Positions 38,706-45,468 of a DNA stretch of 64,000 bases are shown piece after piece. Within the stretch, counting starts at the first letter, position 1. The number at the start of each line of letters is the position of its first letter. This DNA comes from an uncultured Chloroflexia bacterium (GTDB taxonomy: Bacteria; Chloroflexota; UBA5177). The position numbers and the translations under genes were made by a program. Under the pieces are notes generated by a model. That model ran no database searches. It was not told the DNA's origin and was given only the letters and a program-made list of their open reading frames with translations. The DNA lies in contig CAVTRL010000001.1 in assembly GCA_963737125.1 (NCBI GenBank), forward strand, positions 1,758,355 to 1,822,354, given 5' to 3'.

Positions 38706-38793
38706 TGGTGCGCCCGACTGGACTCGAACCAGCACTCCCTTAACGGGAACTAGGCCCTCAACCTAGCGCGTCTACCTGTTCCGCCACGGGCGC
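38706..38793 (-). tRNA. tRNA-Leu (anticodon GAG)
   Basis: Reverse complement folds as a class II tRNA: acceptor GCGCCCG/CGGGCGC, anticodon stem CTAGG/CCTAG with loop TTGAGGG, long variable arm (tcccgttaaggga), T-loop TTCGAGT, encoded CCA. Confidence 0.8.
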
Positions 38794-38891: not shown

Positions 38892-39435
38892 ATGGCACGG
38901 GTAACGACCGGTACGGGAGACGAAGGCTGGACCGATCTGCTCGGCTCGGAACGCGTGCCCAAGTACCATCCCCGTCCGGAAACGTTCGGAACGGTCGACG
39001 AGGCGACGTCCGCGCTGGGGCTAGCCCGGGCGCATCTCGAACGATGCGGCGCTCAAAGATCAGATTTACCGGCTCCAGCAGGATCTATACGTGCTGATGG
39101 CGGAGCTCGCGACGCCTGCCGAGAACTACGCCAAAGTCGACTTCAAAATTCGATCGGAACACGTGGAGCGCCTCGAAAAGGAAAGCGAAGTGCTCAAAGC
39201 GGAAGTCGAAATCGGAAAGGTATTCGTGGTGCCGGGGGCGACGGTGGCGGGAGCCGCGCTGGACGTGGCACGCACGGTGGTTCGCCGCGCTGAGCGCCAG
39301 GTGGCCCGGCTTTATCACGAAGGCGACATAACGAACGCATTCGCGCTGCGCTATCTGAACCGACTGTCGGATCTGTTATTCATCATGGCGAGGTACGAGG
39401 AAGCTACGACCAGGGAGCCGCCGGACGACAACTAG
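38892..39435 (+). CDS. PduO-type ATP:cob(I)alamin adenosyltransferase (frameshift near 39050)
   Basis: MARVTTGTGDEGWTDLLGSERVPK.. N-terminus and ..DLYVLMAELATP.. C-terminal half in two frames; stop codon TAG (39433-39435) abuts the inverted repeat. Confidence 0.7.
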
Positions 39436-39451
39436 TGGGTCACTTGTGTTG
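39432..39451. repeat. left terminal inverted repeat (with flanking C-TA)
   Basis: ctagtgggtcacttgtgttg, perfect reverse complement of 45449-45468. Confidence 0.8.
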
Positions 39452-39543
39452 GTCAAAGCCACTGGTTCGTGCTGCTCGTCGTCTCCGGGGTGACCCCTTC
39501 AAGGCGCCACGAGGGAATGGCTCTGGCCGACCCCCTTGACCCA

Positions 39544-40002
39544 CTAAGAGCGACTCGTGGTCAGCGGAAGCCCAAGCAGGAGAATAGCCCGTGCAACCAG
39601 CACCCCTGCTCCCACCGCCACGAGCGCCATGAGGCCATGCAGCACCTCCTCCAGCACCACGGGACCCGGCGAAGTATTAGTGTAAAAACTCTGAAAGCCA
39701 ATGGCGACGAGGCTGAGAAAGAGGACGACTTCACCAGCGAGAGCCAGGGCAGCATACTGTAGGGATTGAAGAGCGCCGCGGTGGTACCTCTGCGGCCGAA
39801 GGAACGCCAGCCAGATGATGCCTCGCTCGGAGGCAACGACAAGAAGACTGAGGGCCACGATGCCGACGATCACCGCCACTCCACATTGAAAAGTCCCCAG
39901 CCCGACACTAATTGGGAGGCCGCTCGGACGGTGAAGGAAGGGTGTGCTGGTGGCTATCCCAGCCAGAACCGCAAGGCCGCCAAGGACGCAGAACGTTTTC
40001 AC
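39544..40002 (-). CDS. hypothetical polytopic membrane protein (family A, copy 1)
   Basis: 152 aa, about 4 TM helices; N-terminal 60 aa clearly paralogous to ORF 42717..43436 (..LAVLAGI(A/G)(T/A)STPFL(H/Q)RP..GTFQ..). Confidence 0.5.
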   Translation of the reverse strand: MKTFCVLGGLAVLAGIATSTPFLHRPSGLPISVGLGTFQCGVAVIVGIVALSLLVVASERGIIWLAFLRPQRYHRGALQSLQYAALALAGEVVLFLSLVAIGFQSFYTNTSPGPVVLEEVLHGLMALVAVGAGVLVARAILLLGLPLTTSRS

Positions 40003-40020
40003 AGCATGTCCGCCTTCAGG

Positions 40021-40548
40021 TCACGGCAGTTGCACGGTACCCCGAAATGTCACCGTTACGGGTCCAGGTGGAGCGTGCTGCCCGTGCACGAATTGCTCCG
40101 TGTACGTTCCGCGCCCACGAGCATGTGCGAACCGCCCCGTGCCCCCGGTAATCGTGAACGTCCCAACCTGGGCAGGTGTACCTGGAGGGACTGGACGGAA
40201 GCAGGCAGAGAACGTGGAGCGGTACGTCAGGCTGTTACCTCCGGCGCCACGAAGCCGCCCCGGTCCTTTCATCGGAATACAGCCGCTCGGATTGGGAACG
40301 CCGACGCTGTGGGAGCGGAGAGTGCTGCGACCGAGGATGGTTGCCGTTCCGCTCGCAACAACCGCCTCCCGCAACTGGTGCGCGTCCGGAAGGTGAGACA
40401 TCCCGTGATAGGTGGCACGAAAGGCTATACGACCGAACAGGCCGCTGGCATGGGTACCAGGAACGGGTGATGAGAGTGCCGCGCACGCTGCAGCAGCAAC
40501 AGCCAACCATGAGAATCGTTGCATCATGTCATCGGACCTCCCTTTCAC
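40021..40548 (-). CDS. hypothetical secreted protein
   Basis: 175 aa; predicted signal peptide (..MMQRFSWLAVAAAACAALSSP..), Gly/Thr-rich beta-like remainder. Confidence 0.45.
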   Translation of the reverse strand: MKGRSDDMMQRFSWLAVAAAACAALSSPVPGTHASGLFGRIAFRATYHGMSHLPDAHQLREAVVASGTATILGRSTLRSHSVGVPNPSGCIPMKGPGRLRGAGGNSLTYRSTFSACFRPVPPGTPAQVGTFTITGGTGRFAHARGRGTYTEQFVHGQHAPPGPVTVTFRGTVQLP

Positions 40549-41987
40549 CGTACCCCGTCAATTCGGACGCTGAAGTCGGCGCAGTGTGCCGAAACGATGT
40601 CTACGCGCAGCCTGCCTTTGATCCGCACCGTGGTATAAAACTCCCCCGGTCCCGGCATCAGACCGCGAACAGGAACTGCCACGCGCTTCGCGGCCGCGGT
40701 CTGCACGGCGATGCGCACGCCGGTCACACCGGGACACGGAGGTGCATCGGGATACACGCCCGCCGTTACCTGCCACGGTCCGGTCGCGGTAAACCACGGG
40801 GAATACGTATGGAGCTGCGGTCTGGCGTTGTACGTGCCGGAGAAGAAGATCGCCGGGACCACGTCATGCCACGTCTTGCCGCTGTCGCTGCTGCGCACCA
40901 ACCGGCGCAATCTGCCTGCGGCGTAGCAGGTAGAGGCGCTGGGGCACGCGATGGCAGTAAGGGGAGACGCGCCCGGGAGGTTCACCACCCTCCAGCTCTT
41001 CCCTCCATCGGTCGTCCTGGCGGTGGTTCCTGCCCTGCCCAGGGCAATGCAGGTGGTCGGCGTGGGACAGGAAAGGGCACCCATGCCCGGGGTCAGCACG
41101 TGGTTGGCTCCTGGACCCGGTCCTCCAGCCACGGCGCCGAGTCCGGGGATCAAGTGGCGCTTCCAGGTGCGGAACCCGTCCTGGGTGGTAACGGCCACTG
41201 CGTGGTACACGCCGCCATGGTAGTAGCTCGCCCCGGCGAAACAGATGCGCTGCGTTGGACAGGCGATCGCGTGGAACTCGTAGCACGCTAAGGGGGAACA
41301 CGCCGCTCCGCCAACATGGCTGATGAGCCACCGTTTCGCGCCGCCCGTGCTCCGTCCAATTACGTTGTAGCCACCCGCGTAACAGACCGTGGCGCTGGGG
41401 CAGGAGAGCGGCACTGATACACCGCCGCCAAAATCACGCGTCAGCGCTCCCGTGCTCCTCCAGCTCCTGCCGCCATCCATGGTCCGGATGACTTCGTCCC
41501 CCGAGGGGGGCCGAAAGAGCTGAACCGAGCAAGTAGACCCATTTACGCAGGCAAGTCCGGGGAGAGCGCATCCTAGCGGGTGAGATCGTTCCGCCCAGGT
41601 GCGGCCGCCATTAGTGGTGTTCAGCACAGGAAGCGGAGAGGAGCCATTGAGGCAGCCTTCGGTGAGGGCAAAGCAGGCACTGATAGCGGGACAGGTGATC
41701 GTGGCAAGGGAACTCGGCGACCGGCTGGGCTGTGCCTGCCAGGTGGCCCCCGCGTCATGCGTACTGAGGATCGAGCCCTGACTTCCGACGACATAGCACA
41801 CGCGCACGCTGGGACACGAGATGTCTCGGAGCGTTTCCTCCGCCGTTCCCGAGGGTAGGGCGGATTGCTCAGTCGCGGGAGACGCAGCCCGCGTTGTGAA
41901 ATCAGGACTGCCGGCTCCTGCTGCGGTGAGCACGAGAGCGAGCAGGAAGGGCACGAGTACGGAATGATGCTGCCGTATATGTGTCAC
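40545..41987 (-). CDS. secreted Asp-box (BNR)-repeat beta-propeller protein with repeated CPxxxxC motifs
   Basis: About 7 repeats each with C-P-x-x-x-x-C-(Y/F)-x-x-G followed by an Asp-box-like [ST]xDxGx[ST]W (e.g. TTDGGKSWR, SSDSGKTWH); signal-peptide-like start at a GTG (..VTHIRQHHSVLVPFLLALVLTAAGAGS..). The 5' part of track ORF 40545..42509 is rejected. Confidence 0.55.
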   Translation of the reverse strand: MTHIRQHHSVLVPFLLALVLTAAGAGSPDFTTRAASPATEQSALPSGTAEETLRDISCPSVRVCYVVGSQGSILSTHDAGATWQAQPSRSPSSLATITCPAISACFALTEGCLNGSSPLPVLNTTNGGRTWAERSHPLGCALPGLACVNGSTCSVQLFRPPSGDEVIRTMDGGRSWRSTGALTRDFGGGVSVPLSCPSATVCYAGGYNVIGRSTGGAKRWLISHVGGAACSPLACYEFHAIACPTQRICFAGASYYHGGVYHAVAVTTQDGFRTWKRHLIPGLGAVAGGPGPGANHVLTPGMGALSCPTPTTCIALGRAGTTARTTDGGKSWRVVNLPGASPLTAIACPSASTCYAAGRLRRLVRSSDSGKTWHDVVPAIFFSGTYNARPQLHTYSPWFTATGPWQVTAGVYPDAPPCPGVTGVRIAVQTAAAKRVAVPVRGLMPGPGEFYTTVRIKGRLRVDIVSAHCADFSVRIDGVR

Positions 41988-41989
41988 GG

Positions 41990-42490
41990 CTATGCCGCTC
42001 GACGAGCCAGGAATAGTAGCGCGACGGGGCCCAGGATAATTCCTATGACTGCGGCGATGAGGAAGCCGAAGGCGGCCGCAGTGAGAAACGCGTATCCGGC
42101 CGTTGGGCCGGCCGTGCAGCTCGCTTTCTCGAAGCAGGGATTGGCGTAGCCGGCGGACAGTGCGGCTACGACCAGATCGACAAAGGCAAGGATACCGCCA
42201 AGGGCATAGATGATCGTAGCCTGACCGTAGATGCCGTCTCGCGCGCGAGCAGCTGAGAAGAGCAGCGCACCGCACGGTAGCAGCGCGAAGGCGAGGCTGG
42301 TGAGGAACACAGATCCGCCATATCGCTGCGCAATTGAACCGGAGAGGAGCGCGAGGGCCGAGAGGATGGCACAGAGTGGGCCGGCCAGCACGACCGCCCA
42401 CGCCACGTGTCTGCCCGCGGACATGCCCGGCTCGTCCCCTCGTATCGTCAGTTGCTGTTTCCTGTGCCGTGTTGCAGCGGTCGGTTCCAT
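41990..42490 (-). CDS. hypothetical polytopic membrane protein (family B, copy 1)
   Basis: 166 aa; shares (F/Y)ANPC(F/W)..(A/P)SCT(A/G)G loop motif and TM layout with ORF 43438..43935. Confidence 0.5.
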   Translation of the reverse strand: MEPTAATRHRKQQLTIRGDEPGMSAGRHVAWAVVLAGPLCAILSALALLSGSIAQRYGGSVFLTSLAFALLPCGALLFSAARARDGIYGQATIIYALGGILAFVDLVVAALSAGYANPCFEKASCTAGPTAGYAFLTAAAFGFLIAAVIGIILGPVALLFLARRAA

Positions 42491-42716
42491 GAGTCCCTCC
42501 TTGCAGCACTCACTCTATGCCTGTCCTGCACAGAACGCGTGAGGATGACTACCGATGGTCTCTTGGGGAGAATCACGTAGGTGGACAGCCGGGTACCGCG
42601 ACCGAGGGGACAGCGCAGATATGTTTGCTCGGACGATTCCGTATACCTGGCCGATCTAGGCCCACCGAAAAGGTAGCGCATCACCGTCTCAATCATCGAC
42701 CGTTTGTGCTCCAGAG

Positions 42717-43436
42717 CTAGCGTCCAACCAAGAACGGATAGAGTTCGGCCCTGTGCTTCCACCGCCCCACCAGCACGTAGGAGCCGGAGGATGGGAAGAA
42801 GAGATAGCCGCAATAGAACAGGAATCGCCTGGCGTTCTTGTCGCGCCTATATGCATCCGACATGGGATCCAAGCGCAGAACCGGGCCAGCGGTCTGCGGA
42901 CTGTCTCCAAACATAACCGCCTTACCCGATGCGAGGTTCCATCCACGCACCGTGATAACGTCTGTGAGCGCGGGGCCTGCCGCCGAGACAGCCTTTTGGT
43001 ACGGGGCACGCGGCCTGGTCCTCGTGTGGAGGATCCCGTCCACTGTGGACGGATTGACCCACAGCGGAGCTCGACCAAACGCGTGGTGAAAGGCCCCGGC
43101 GAGTCGCTGCATTGGAGCTCGGGGTGGGCAATTCTTCGGCACCGGCCCGTAGTGGGGGGACGGCTTGTTAGCGCTGACCATTGCGGCGCCGGCCGGCCAG
43201 AGTACGCCAGCCGCAGACGCCACGGCCAGGAGAGCCAGCATCACCATCCCGTCTGCCGCCGCCACCACCACTTGAAAGGTCCCCGGTCCGACACTCGATG
43301 AGAGGCTGGTCGGACGTTGAAGGAACGGCGTGCTGGCACCTATCCCCGCCAGAACCGCAAGGGCACCAATGACCAGGAACGACTTCACGGACAACTGCTG
43401 TATCCGCGGCGACCCTTTGGGCATCTCCCCAGACAT
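42717..43436 (-). CDS. hypothetical membrane protein (family A, copy 2) with divergent C-terminal region
   Basis: 239 aa; N-terminus paralogous to 39544..40002; C-terminal half unlike copy 1 and may be partly non-coding read-through. Confidence 0.4.
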   Translation of the reverse strand: MSGEMPKGSPRIQQLSVKSFLVIGALAVLAGIGASTPFLQRPTSLSSSVGPGTFQVVVAAADGMVMLALLAVASAAGVLWPAGAAMVSANKPSPHYGPVPKNCPPRAPMQRLAGAFHHAFGRAPLWVNPSTVDGILHTRTRPRAPYQKAVSAAGPALTDVITVRGWNLASGKAVMFGDSPQTAGPVLRLDPMSDAYRRDKNARRFLFYCGYLFFPSSGSYVLVGRWKHRAELYPFLVGR

Positions 43437-43437
43437 G

Positions 43438-43935
43438 TCAGGGCCCGTGCCCGCTCACAATGTGCTCAGTCGATCGTCGTGCCGCGCGAAGGAGCAGGGG
43501 CGAAAGAAGCAGAGCAACGGCTGCGGCCAGCAGCAAGACGAGTAGCGCAGCCTTGAGGATGCTGTCCTCGAGGGATGACCCGCCCGTACAGCTTGGGTTG
43601 TCCCAGCAGGGGTTGGCGAAGACCCTGAACAGGGCGACCGCTCCGATGCCGGGCAGAAGAACCACCCCTCCTGCAAGAGACGCGCTCCTGGCTGCAGGCA
43701 GATCCGCCCGGCGCGCCAATTTCGCTGCCCGGAGGAGCATCTGGCAGGGGACCATCCCAAGGCCGACTACCCCAACCACGATGGCTATTTGTACGCCGAT
43801 GGGGAAGCGCAATACTCTGTCGTCGTACAGAGCTGTGCCAAGGACGACGGCACACACTCCGAGGGCAGCGAGCACCGCACCGGCGACTGCTGCGAGGTAG
43901 GCCATCCATTGTGAGATCGGAGCGGAGCGGGTCAT
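43438..43935 (-). CDS. hypothetical polytopic membrane protein (family B, copy 2)
   Basis: 165 aa; ..FANPCWDNPSCTGG.. motif paralogous to 41990..42490. Confidence 0.5.
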   Translation of the reverse strand: MTRSAPISQWMAYLAAVAGAVLAALGVCAVVLGTALYDDRVLRFPIGVQIAIVVGVVGLGMVPCQMLLRAAKLARRADLPAARSASLAGGVVLLPGIGAVALFRVFANPCWDNPSCTGGSSLEDSILKAALLVLLLAAAVALLLSPLLLRAARRSTEHIVSGHGP

Positions 43936-44063
43936 CTCGGTGCCTCGATAGCTCGACTTTATACCGGCGCAGAGGGGAAGACATCCGTAAGACCACGGAA
44001 GATCTCGTCCTCAGCCGAAGAGATGGGGAGCGGCCCCGCCAGCCGGCTGCGCTCGACTCCTGG

Positions 44064-44089
44064 CGGGTCACGTGTATTGGTCACAACCC
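44064..44089. repeat. internal degenerate copy of the left terminal repeat
   Basis: gcgggtcacgtgtattggtcacaacc vs left end gtgggtcacttgtgttggtcaaagcc: 21/26 identical, same orientation as the left end, no TA flank. Confidence 0.55.
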
Positions 44090-44094
44090 TTGTC

Positions 44095-45421
44095 TCAGGC
44101 TGCCCGTCGGCGGTGGAGTGGCCGCCGGGTATAGGCACCTGAGCCACCGAGGGCATGACGTCGCTCCCGTGCTCGCTGGCGTCGGGCCTGCCGTTTCCCA
44201 CCCCACTCGAAGGGCGTCGGCTCTCGGTTCCAGGCACGGGCTGTTGCCTCCAGCCAGTCGATGATCTCCTCGGGCGTCTTGGGATGGGCGCCGTCGAGTG
44301 CGCGCCGCTTGAGGATGCGCTGAATCGACTCGCACATATTGAGGTACGAGCCGCCCAGCGGGGTGAAGAGGGGCATGATCCCGTGGTGGAAGAGCCACAG
44401 GATGAGATCGACGGTGTAGTGCCCGGTGAGGTTATCCCAGACCAGGAGCATGCGGAGCGGTGGGAGGTCCTGAGGAAGGGTGGTGCGGATCGTCAGCCCC
44501 TCTTGCCAGCGCTGCCAGCACCGTCGGTTCTCCTCCGGCGGGAGGGCGTCCGGCTTAGGCAGGGTTGCCAGGATGGCCAGCAACTCCGCTTCGAGCCAGG
44601 GATGCAGGATGGCATTAGCACCGCTTCGCACCCCTTTCACCCGCACGTGCCCAGTGGCGGGATGGAAGAGCGTCAACTGCTTGGCCGTGCCTTCCCGGAC
44701 ATACTCATGGGGATAGCGAACCGGCTCTCCAGCCGGATGCCAGTGGGAGCCGGGATAGGGGAGCGTCCCATACGGACCCGCCTCGTCTTCTGCCCAGACC
44801 GGCGGGAGGGACTGGGTATATGCCGCCTGGATCAACTTTTTTTCGCTGCGGCATCGGGATCGACGACCGTCACGGTTCCACTTTTCCGCTTCCTGACCAC
44901 GGTCCCTGTCTCGCACCAACTCTGATCCTTGGTCCAGACAAAGCCGGCATCGTGCAAGACGCACCAGATGGTGTAGGTGCTGATCCCGGGCAGGCCATCC
45001 GGCGCGCGCGTCGCAGCGTGGTGAGTGACCACGTCGCCGTGCCATCCGTGTTCCGATCCGGTGTGCGCCGCACCTCCCGCAGAATCCGCTCTTGCTCGGT
45101 CTCGGTGTAGCGCTTCGGCTGCCCACCACCATGATGCTCGACCAGCGCGTCGATCCCGTCCCGGTTGAACCGGGTCACCAGATGGGCAACGGCATCGCCA
45201 CTCTTGCGACCGGCACGGCGTGCTGCGCTCTCGAAGCTTGCGCCATCCGCGACCGCGAGGAGTTCCTTGGCTCGCACCACCTGAGCGGCGGGATCGGTGC
45301 GCGATCGACTCACTAGTTCAAGGTGGAGGCGTTCGTTGGGCGTAAGGGGACGCAAGGGATCTTTCTGGCGAGCCGGCATGGCAGACTCCGGGGAAGGCGA
45401 GGCGGCGAATACCTGCCACAA
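44095..45421 (-). CDS. IS630/Tc1-family DDE transposase, split over three reading frames
   Basis: N-terminal HTH frame (track ORF 44870..45421), middle frame (44832..45032: ..[31 protein letters not shown]), DDE_3 frame (44095..45132: ..LVWDNLTGH.., ..[16 protein letters not shown]..); the last switch is at an A7 tract (plus-strand T7 at 44837-44843). Confidence 0.7.
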
Positions 45422-45448
45422 GCCTACTGCCGTCGATTGGCAGTCATC

Positions 45449-45468
45449 AACACAAGTGACCCACTAGA
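45449..45468. repeat. right terminal inverted repeat (with flanking TA-G)
   Basis: caacacaagtgacccactag; its CTA (45464-45466) is the minus-strand TAG stop codon of tsaD. Confidence 0.8.

Follow-up and report, generated by a model that had tools for sequence, protein, structure and literature searches.

In the 64-kb stretch of DNA analysed here (the window), a unit of 6,030 bp extends from 39435 to 45464 with the limits C-TA/.../TA-G, where slashes mark element borders. It comprises an IS core of the IS630 family, six cargo genes downstream of its transposase gene and, on the far side of these genes, a small MITE-like unit (Table 1). Our analysis indicates that the IS core, by pairing with a surrogate end provided by the MITE-like unit, probably moved the six genes as one transposon, which would now be a fossil.

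Table 1. Features of the 6,030-bp unit and its borders, in window coordinates.
Feature	Position	Strand	Description or basis
Left TA target duplication	39433-39434	.	C39432, TA and G39435 form CTAG (at 39432)
Outer left inverted repeat A, transposase-distal type	39435-39460	+	Repeat comparison
MITE-like unit A-B, 110 bp	39435-39544	.	Inverted repeat, 19/26 match, simulation, DNA hairpin fold
Fourth, degenerate inverted-repeat copy B	39519-39544	-	19/26 to A
Cargo block (~4.5 kb): six genes, all in one direction, downstream of the transposase	39547-44062	-	ORFs; same block in L013
c152	39544-40002	-	Cargo gene
c175	40021-40548	-	Cargo gene
Secreted Cys-rich BNR/Ycf48-like protein	40545-41987	-	Cargo gene
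c166	41990-42490	-	Cargo gene
c239	42717-43436	-	Cargo gene
c165	43438-43935	-	Cargo gene
Internal copy I	44063-44088	+	Vestige of the core's own transposase-distal inverted repeat; alignment A1, end census
IS630-family core (I to D)	44063-45464	-	1,402 bp; collinear with L007 (1,395 bp), L011 and L012
Transposase pseudogene	44095-45369	-	HTH N-terminus, DD35E catalytic domain
Right, transposase-proximal inverted repeat D	45439-45464	-	Paired inverted repeat
Right TA target duplication	45465-45466	.	CTAG at 45464-45467 supplies the TAG stop of tsaD, - strand

The internal repeat I is the 26-mer gcgggtcacgtgtattggtcacaacc on the + strand. The first-pass annotation had placed it at 44064-44089, one base to the right of its true position, and its identity of 21/26 to the left terminus A could be reproduced. 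Identity to the right terminus D is 19/26. It was also correctly described as lying directly downstream of the transposase gene, whose stop codon (44095-44097) is 32 nt away from the outer base of I. When both strands of the 64-kb window were scanned for matches of at least 17/26 to the left 26-mer, only four places were found: A itself, D (22/26), I (21/26) and B (19/26). Hence, the three repeat copies listed before are all present, but a fourth one had been overlooked. Among 300 simulated 64-kb windows drawn from a first-order Markov model, none contained a 21/26 match (0/300), and a match of at least 19/26 appeared in 2.3%.

Alignment of the window element with three related loci (alignment A1), which are collinear with it end to end, places I, with no offset in any column, on the repeat at the transposase-distal end of L007, L011 and L012. 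Moreover, the spacing of 32 nt between stop codon and element end is the same in L011 and L012. Given this position and this spacing, I is the distal repeat of the 1.4-kb core itself, in a mutated state, which supports the earlier proposal that a 1.4-kb IS core later recruited a distal, perfect left end. Within its terminal 12 nt, I carries the changes T2C and T10G. Its flank is CTG (44060-44062), versus CTA in 24 out of 24 related ends; where the relatives read ...GTGACCCAC/TAG at the distal end, the window reads ...GTGACCCgC/cAG. The absence of a TA flank is therefore correct to the letter, but the flank is not unrelated sequence, rather CTA with one mutated base. Sequencing error is excluded for the repeat and for its flank, because both recur base for base in L013 (Logan ERR11594400), an independent contig built from the short reads of a different sample. 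Altogether, I and its TA flank have accumulated three changes in the terminal 14 nt (TA plus 12 nt), compared with none in A and D. Such an uneven decay is to be expected if selection for transposition kept A, D and the transposase, but not I.

The core belongs to a divergent subgroup of the IS630 family. Members of this family, part of the IS630/Tc1/mariner superfamily, duplicate a TA target, often located within CTAG, as in IS630 itself. The core shares with them the transposase type, consisting of an HTH region and a DDE_3 domain (Pfam matches to HTH_29, HTH_32 and DDE_3) with a DD35E spacing read off the translated protein, short inverted repeats, a strict targeting of CTAG with TA duplication, and a size of ~1.4 kb within the ~1.1-1.4 kb of the family. 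The NCBIfam model transpos_IS630 (NF033545) matches the transposase with E=4e-26 and 92 bits, under its curated cutoff of 100. Protein identity to the transposase of the window is 72-86% for its nearest relatives and only ~25% for plasmid-borne transposases with an IS630-family annotation.

What this element no longer has is an active transposase. In comparison with three relatives, a deletion of 10 bp at ~45003-45009 (columns 506-515 of alignment A1) shifts the reading frame; the protein is dead, its gene a pseudogene and the element an immobile fossil at present. This deletion and a second site aside, the frame of ~430 codons has no in-frame stops. The second site is an A7 run at 44837-44843 (- strand), where a -1 shift is needed. 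It coincides with the orfA/orfB junction and is kept in eight relatives, including L011 (~7990), L021, L025, L026, L027 and L028, and dozens of clusters of 246-aa orfB proteins begin just past it. On the basis of this conservation, the A7 run probably represents a programmed -1 frameshift in this IS630 subgroup. In L007 the run is A6 and the frames are fused. Relatives on plasmids of Deinococcus, Microvirga and Leptolyngbya (53-58% identical) are also annotated as two ORFs. We considered assembly errors as the origin of both frameshifts and rejected them, as the shift at A7 is conserved in eight relatives and a 10-bp deletion is too large for a homopolymer error. Of note, the source contig is absent among the best 120 transposase matches, which makes an intact sister copy in the source genome unlikely.

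The outer left end A has a different ancestry. A and D are identical over their first 17 nt (17/17) in opposite orientation, and both carry the family consensus in the terminal 12 nt. Homology of A to the distal termini of complete IS copies reaches as far as ~39483 and contains a relic of the 3' end of a transposase gene. BLAST matches of 86-88% over 50-51 nt link A to L019, L025, L028 and L032; over its first 50 nt, A is 84% identical to the distal termini of the complete copies L025, L026, L028 and L032, and only 76% identical to I. Since A is closer to the termini of these relatives than to I, it was not copied from I and derives from a sibling lineage. This is in agreement with the recruitment of a distal end, with A as a genuine distal-type terminus of another lineage.

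A and the degenerate copy B, whose terminal GTGGGTCA is perfect, enclose a segment of 110 bp flanked by TA on both sides (39433-39434 and 39545-39546). This segment is small and non-coding, and its inverted repeats are related to those of the IS; we regard it as MITE-like, and its anatomy suggests a deletion derivative of a sibling IS. Multiple dispersed copies, as expected for a MITE, were not observed: the window contains it once, and BLAST with the B half retrieved no further match among the fetched loci. The recognition of B places the left end of the 6-kb unit within a TA-flanked, MITE-like unit, and so it opens the rival explanation of separate insertions of MITE and IS, which we weigh below.

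The cargo proteins are mostly predicted to be membrane-bound or secreted, and only the BNR/Ycf48-like protein was matched by Pfam and NCBIfam. Two pairs of paralogues, c165/c166 and c239/c152, can be recognized: c166 and c165 are 31-35% identical, and c152 and c239 share their N-terminal 66 aa with 61% identity (39806-40002 versus 43192-43388). These pairs imply an older internal duplication of a two-gene module. The stop codon of c152 is made of TA plus the first base of the B end of the MITE-like unit. The cargo block is present at 99.9% identity in L013, a contig that covers this very locus in a different sample and was the sole match in exact-protein look-ups of the BNR protein and c165. 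The corresponding look-up for c152 gave no record, and no alternative genomic context for the cargo was found, as the exact-protein look-ups returned only L013. The ends of this contig (39639 and 44269) lie off the repeat boundaries, and it holds no information on copy number. In contig L014, homologues of the BNR protein (55%) and of c175 (68%) occur together without an IS.

The target site provides further evidence that the unit came in as a whole. Two correctly oriented, functional-looking ends (A on the + strand, D on the - strand) enclose the cargo, and the CTAG at each border doubles as a stop codon, the left one being the TAG of a cobalamin adenosyltransferase (cob) gene. In two relatives with TsaD proteins 68-70% identical to that of the window, L015 (GCA_025449555.1) and L016 (a JGI metagenome), the genes tsaE-tsaB-rimI-tsaD converge with Cob_adeno_trans, leaving 8-10 bp between the stops. 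Given this short distance, everything between cob and tsaD in the window, that is, all 6,030 bp, is inserted relative to the ancestral arrangement. Removing in silico the 6,030 bp and one TA yields ...GACAAC-TAG-AACTGCAG..., in which both genes retain their stop codons and no bases are left over; the uninterrupted cob/tsaD junction is expected to read ...GACAACTAGAACTGCAG.... A target duplication is thus accompanied by an empty site, the latter defined by synteny at ~70% TsaD identity and not by the exact site. The exact C-TA and TA-G borders of a unit that fills a junction 8-10 bp wide in two relatives agree with the recruitment of the outer end. That the 6-kb unit moved as one, as the first-pass annotation had concluded, we infer from these boundaries and from synteny: scans of end sequences in the genome and metagenome collections revealed no second 6-kb copy, at another site or otherwise, and a search for a near-identical, strain-level empty site found none, the exact-protein look-up of TsaD being without record.

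CTAG, the target of this IS, is strongly depleted in the 64-kb window (35 observed versus 219 expected from base composition), as is TA to a lesser degree (1,469 versus 2,272), and the CTAGs at the junctions of the element are TAG stops too. The case shows that elements targeting CTAG in high-GC genomes tend towards TAG stops, at which an insertion causes hardly any harm. The unit and its flanks are alike in GC content, which favours none of the hypotheses. The PduO-type cobalamin adenosyltransferase gene (38892-39435, + strand) is split in two frames near 39040-39050; comparison with a 178-aa orthologue in L015 shows that one frame encodes the N-terminal 50 aa and a second frame the remainder, reflecting either a pseudogene or a 1-nt assembly error. 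A tRNA-Leu(GAG) gene (38706-38793, - strand) is located ~640 bp to the left of the element, with the adenosyltransferase gene in between, and we saw no sign of its use as an integration site.

A census of related copies had been suggested earlier as a way to find out which boundaries recur. The metagenome scan for the distal-type end identified 16 loci. The family end sequence is GTGGGTCACTTG, and complete copies measure 1,395-1,417 bp (L007, L021, L025, L028 and L032). All 24 distinct related end contexts are flanked CTA/G, and their terminal 12 nt are the same in every case. This invariance is partly built in, since the pattern used to search for distal ends already prescribed these bases; five complete copies show it too at their proximal ends, on which the pattern imposed nothing. 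Among the loci collected, the other complete copies are of 1.4 kb with CTAG targets, and the 6-kb boundary does not recur. A scan for degenerate ends in the genome collection, to which the source genome does not belong, returned six single matches in unrelated taxa, which were treated as chance; the one inspected (L001) has no TA flank. In three loci, copies are arranged end to end and share a single TA (...CCCAC-TA-GTGGG...), namely at 1507/1510 in L025, at 2020/2023 in L028, and at 23 and 1439 in L032. This arrangement shows that the CTAG regenerated at the ends of an element is itself a target of the family. It had been reasoned that finding only 1.4-kb cores, with the cargo genes independently elsewhere, would make the left repeat a solo remnant. 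This is what we observe in part, with two cargo genes in an IS-free context in L014. The observation is not decisive, because synteny shows the cargo to be foreign to the cob/tsaD junction.

The history that we propose starts at an earlier location, where a 1.4-kb IS would have adjoined the block of six genes and a 110-bp MITE-like derivative of a sibling IS would have stood on the far side of this block. The transposase would then have paired the outer end of the MITE-like unit (39435) with the intact proximal end of the IS (45464), and the 6,030 bp in between would have been cut out. Their presumed destination was the CTAG formed by the overlapping stops of the convergent cobalamin adenosyltransferase and tsaD genes, where TA was duplicated. 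The inner end I, no longer needed, may have decayed afterwards; alternatively, its decay may have forced the use of the outer end. A later deletion of 10 bp in the transposase would have turned the unit into an immobile fossil. The four repeat copies with their identities, the match in position between I and the distal repeat, the CTAG/TA borders, the adjacent tsaD and cob genes of relatives and the transposase lesion are directly observed. A single transposition of the whole unit, the order of events and the source of the transposase, which could have acted in cis before the deletion or in trans, are what we infer from the present arrangement.

Transposition as one unit accounts for the precise limits of the insertion and for the uneven decay of its ends; the TA next to B and the CTG next to I would be relics of the previous site. 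The same flanks can be read against it: with TA on both sides of the MITE-like unit and CTG/CTA around the IS core, two independent insertions are also self-consistent. Further points against it are the single copy of the MITE-like unit, the fact that neither a second 6-kb copy nor the empty site of a near-identical strain was found, and the distance of the relatives used for synteny. According to the alternative of two insertions, the cargo had arrived by another route; later the MITE-like unit entered at the TA of the cob stop and, separately, the IS at that of the tsaD stop. I would then be the left end of this IS, decaying where it stands, and the 6-kb unit would never have been mobile as a whole. 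The perfect TAs of the MITE-like unit, the single substitution that separates the flanks of the IS from a TA duplication, the 1.4-kb size of every complete related copy and the joint occurrence of BNR and c175 homologues without an IS in L014 all point in this direction. Moreover, CTAG is rare and coincides with TAG stops, so that independent insertions at gene ends are not improbable. However, this scenario needs three events, one of which is the unexplained arrival of 4.5 kb that fit from stop to stop without a spare base, between genes that in relatives are only 8-10 bp apart. It also leaves unexplained why the terminal 14 nt of the inner end have three changes and those at the other end of the IS have none. 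For these reasons, we consider two independent insertions unlikely, and a single transposition of the hybrid unit is the most economical account.

Recombination or repair offers a further route, in which a 1.4-kb IS bounded by A and D was inserted first, and B, the cargo, I and the 3' region of the transposase gene were placed inside it later. This could have occurred by gene conversion or double crossover with a locus that carried IS plus cargo, or by template switching during gap repair. The perfect pairing of A and D with their CTAG flanks would follow directly, the IS homology of A ends after only ~50 nt, and the copies of this family, often arranged end to end, would be suitable substrates. 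But the left crossover would have had to rely on only ~50 nt of 76%-identical homology, the number of steps exceeds that of one transposition, and no junction or duplicated segment is visible; we find such an origin very improbable. Least probable of all, and scarcely credible, is the reading of I as a relic of nested insertion, in which I would belong to another element that had entered an older, larger transposon. The family does insert at CTAGs that its own copies have regenerated at their ends (L025, L028 and L032). Nevertheless, I sits exactly where the core's own distal repeat belongs, 32 nt past the stop codon and collinear with the relatives, and no interrupted element can be reconstructed. 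This reading, put forward in the first-pass annotation as one of two options, was rejected, as the cargo side of I holds no inverted partner.

The preferred account, in which a surrogate outer end moved the cargo, is also supported by three other loci that have an outer distal-type end, CTAG flanks and enclosed non-transposase genes (L011/L017, L012 and L019). The first is a unit of 2.1 kb (L011 6668-8770, L017 125-2227) with a PRK/uridine-kinase-family gene and a transposase, limited by an outer distal-type end and a normal distal end with CTAG at both. L011 and L017 are 99.9% identical rightwards from the outer end, and their left flanks diverge exactly at the TA, which points to a rearrangement at this end or to a second site of insertion. 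The unit in L012 (5157-8761; GCA_025449555.1) measures 3.6 kb; upstream of its transposase, a stretch of 2.2 kb that leads to the outer distal-type end holds cupin, hypothetical, cupin and MarR genes. Its proximal end is at the normal position and degenerate in the terminal ~25-30 nt, a layout that mirrors that of the window on the other side of the IS. Finally, L019 (110-1735; also L020) shows two inverted distal-type ends with CTAG flanks over 1.6 kb, enclosing a single gene of ~364 aa and no transposase; it may be a non-autonomous cargo element. The product of this gene bears a weak resemblance to M29 peptidases (Pfam E=5e-4, below cutoff). Altogether, these units hint that this outer-end route to enclosing genes recurs, although no unit was encountered at more than one site.

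A broader, tentative proposal, which we hold to be somewhat unlikely as it stands, is that gene capture is recurrent in this Chloroflexota-associated IS630 subgroup. A nearby distal-type end, from a MITE or a sibling copy, would replace an end that is decayed or lost, and the flanking genes would become cargo, with the window (6.0 kb), L012 (3.6 kb), L011/L017 (2.1 kb) and L019 (1.6 kb) as four independent products. If true, bacteria would have Tc1/mariner-type elements able to mobilise genes in a manner comparable to ISEcp1 and ISPme1 or to plant Pack-MITEs. Taken by itself, the case described here would be an ordinary, if neat, gene capture, an event of a known class of which few descriptions exist for this family. 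It illustrates how a simple cut-and-paste element of the IS630 type could turn into a vehicle for genes by swapping an end, and the locus preserves the history of this assembly in its inner repeat, now vestigial, in the inner end of the MITE-like unit and in the two outer ends, which are intact and have their target duplication. It also calls for caution in annotation, as an IS with one poor end may be part of a larger mobile unit.

With regard to known systems, the window element departs from IS630 in that its transposase is encoded in two frames joined at a conserved A7 and that it carries 4.5 kb of genes unrelated to transposition. IS630-family elements with passenger genes are seldom reported, and in full-text literature that pairs the family with passenger genes we found no cargo-carrying element of this sort. 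The closest mechanistic parallel is offered by transposable modules (TMos of ISPme1, and ISEcp1-blaCTX-M; IS1380 family), in which a single IS moves 3'-adjacent DNA through a surrogate distal end (PMC9330008). As in these modules, a downstream sequence takes the place of the authentic repeat, and the cargo lies downstream of the transposase and co-directional with it. In TMos and ISEcp1, however, the surrogate resembles an end only weakly and by chance, and the authentic inner end stays functional, whereas here the surrogate is the terminus of a sibling element and the inner end is mutated; an intact inner end combined with variable, weak surrogate ends is not what we find. The IS family differs too, and the chemistry in the window is presumably cut-and-paste. 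Our results thus extend the surrogate-end mechanism, known from other IS families, to IS630.

The contribution of a miniature element has its own precedents. TIME-COMPs are composites bounded by miniature elements (PMC4133298), and a pair of 439-bp MITEs surrounds an integron of Acinetobacter (PMC3934969). Likewise, in the window a miniature, non-autonomous derivative supplies a transposon end and makes the genes in between mobilisable. In those systems, the miniature element is present at both ends and the transposase acts in trans, whereas the window has a full IS at one end and the miniature element at the other; the families are Tn3-derived or unassigned there and IS630 here. Transporter IS (tIS), on the other hand, carry passenger genes inside the inverted repeats of an IS derivative (PMC9330008). 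The window element resembles them in that one pair of repeats encloses a transposase and passenger genes. To our knowledge, the tIS category does not include a second, internal copy of an end. Unlike tIS, the window element keeps a vestigial inner repeat and an inner MITE end, a record of how it would have been assembled.
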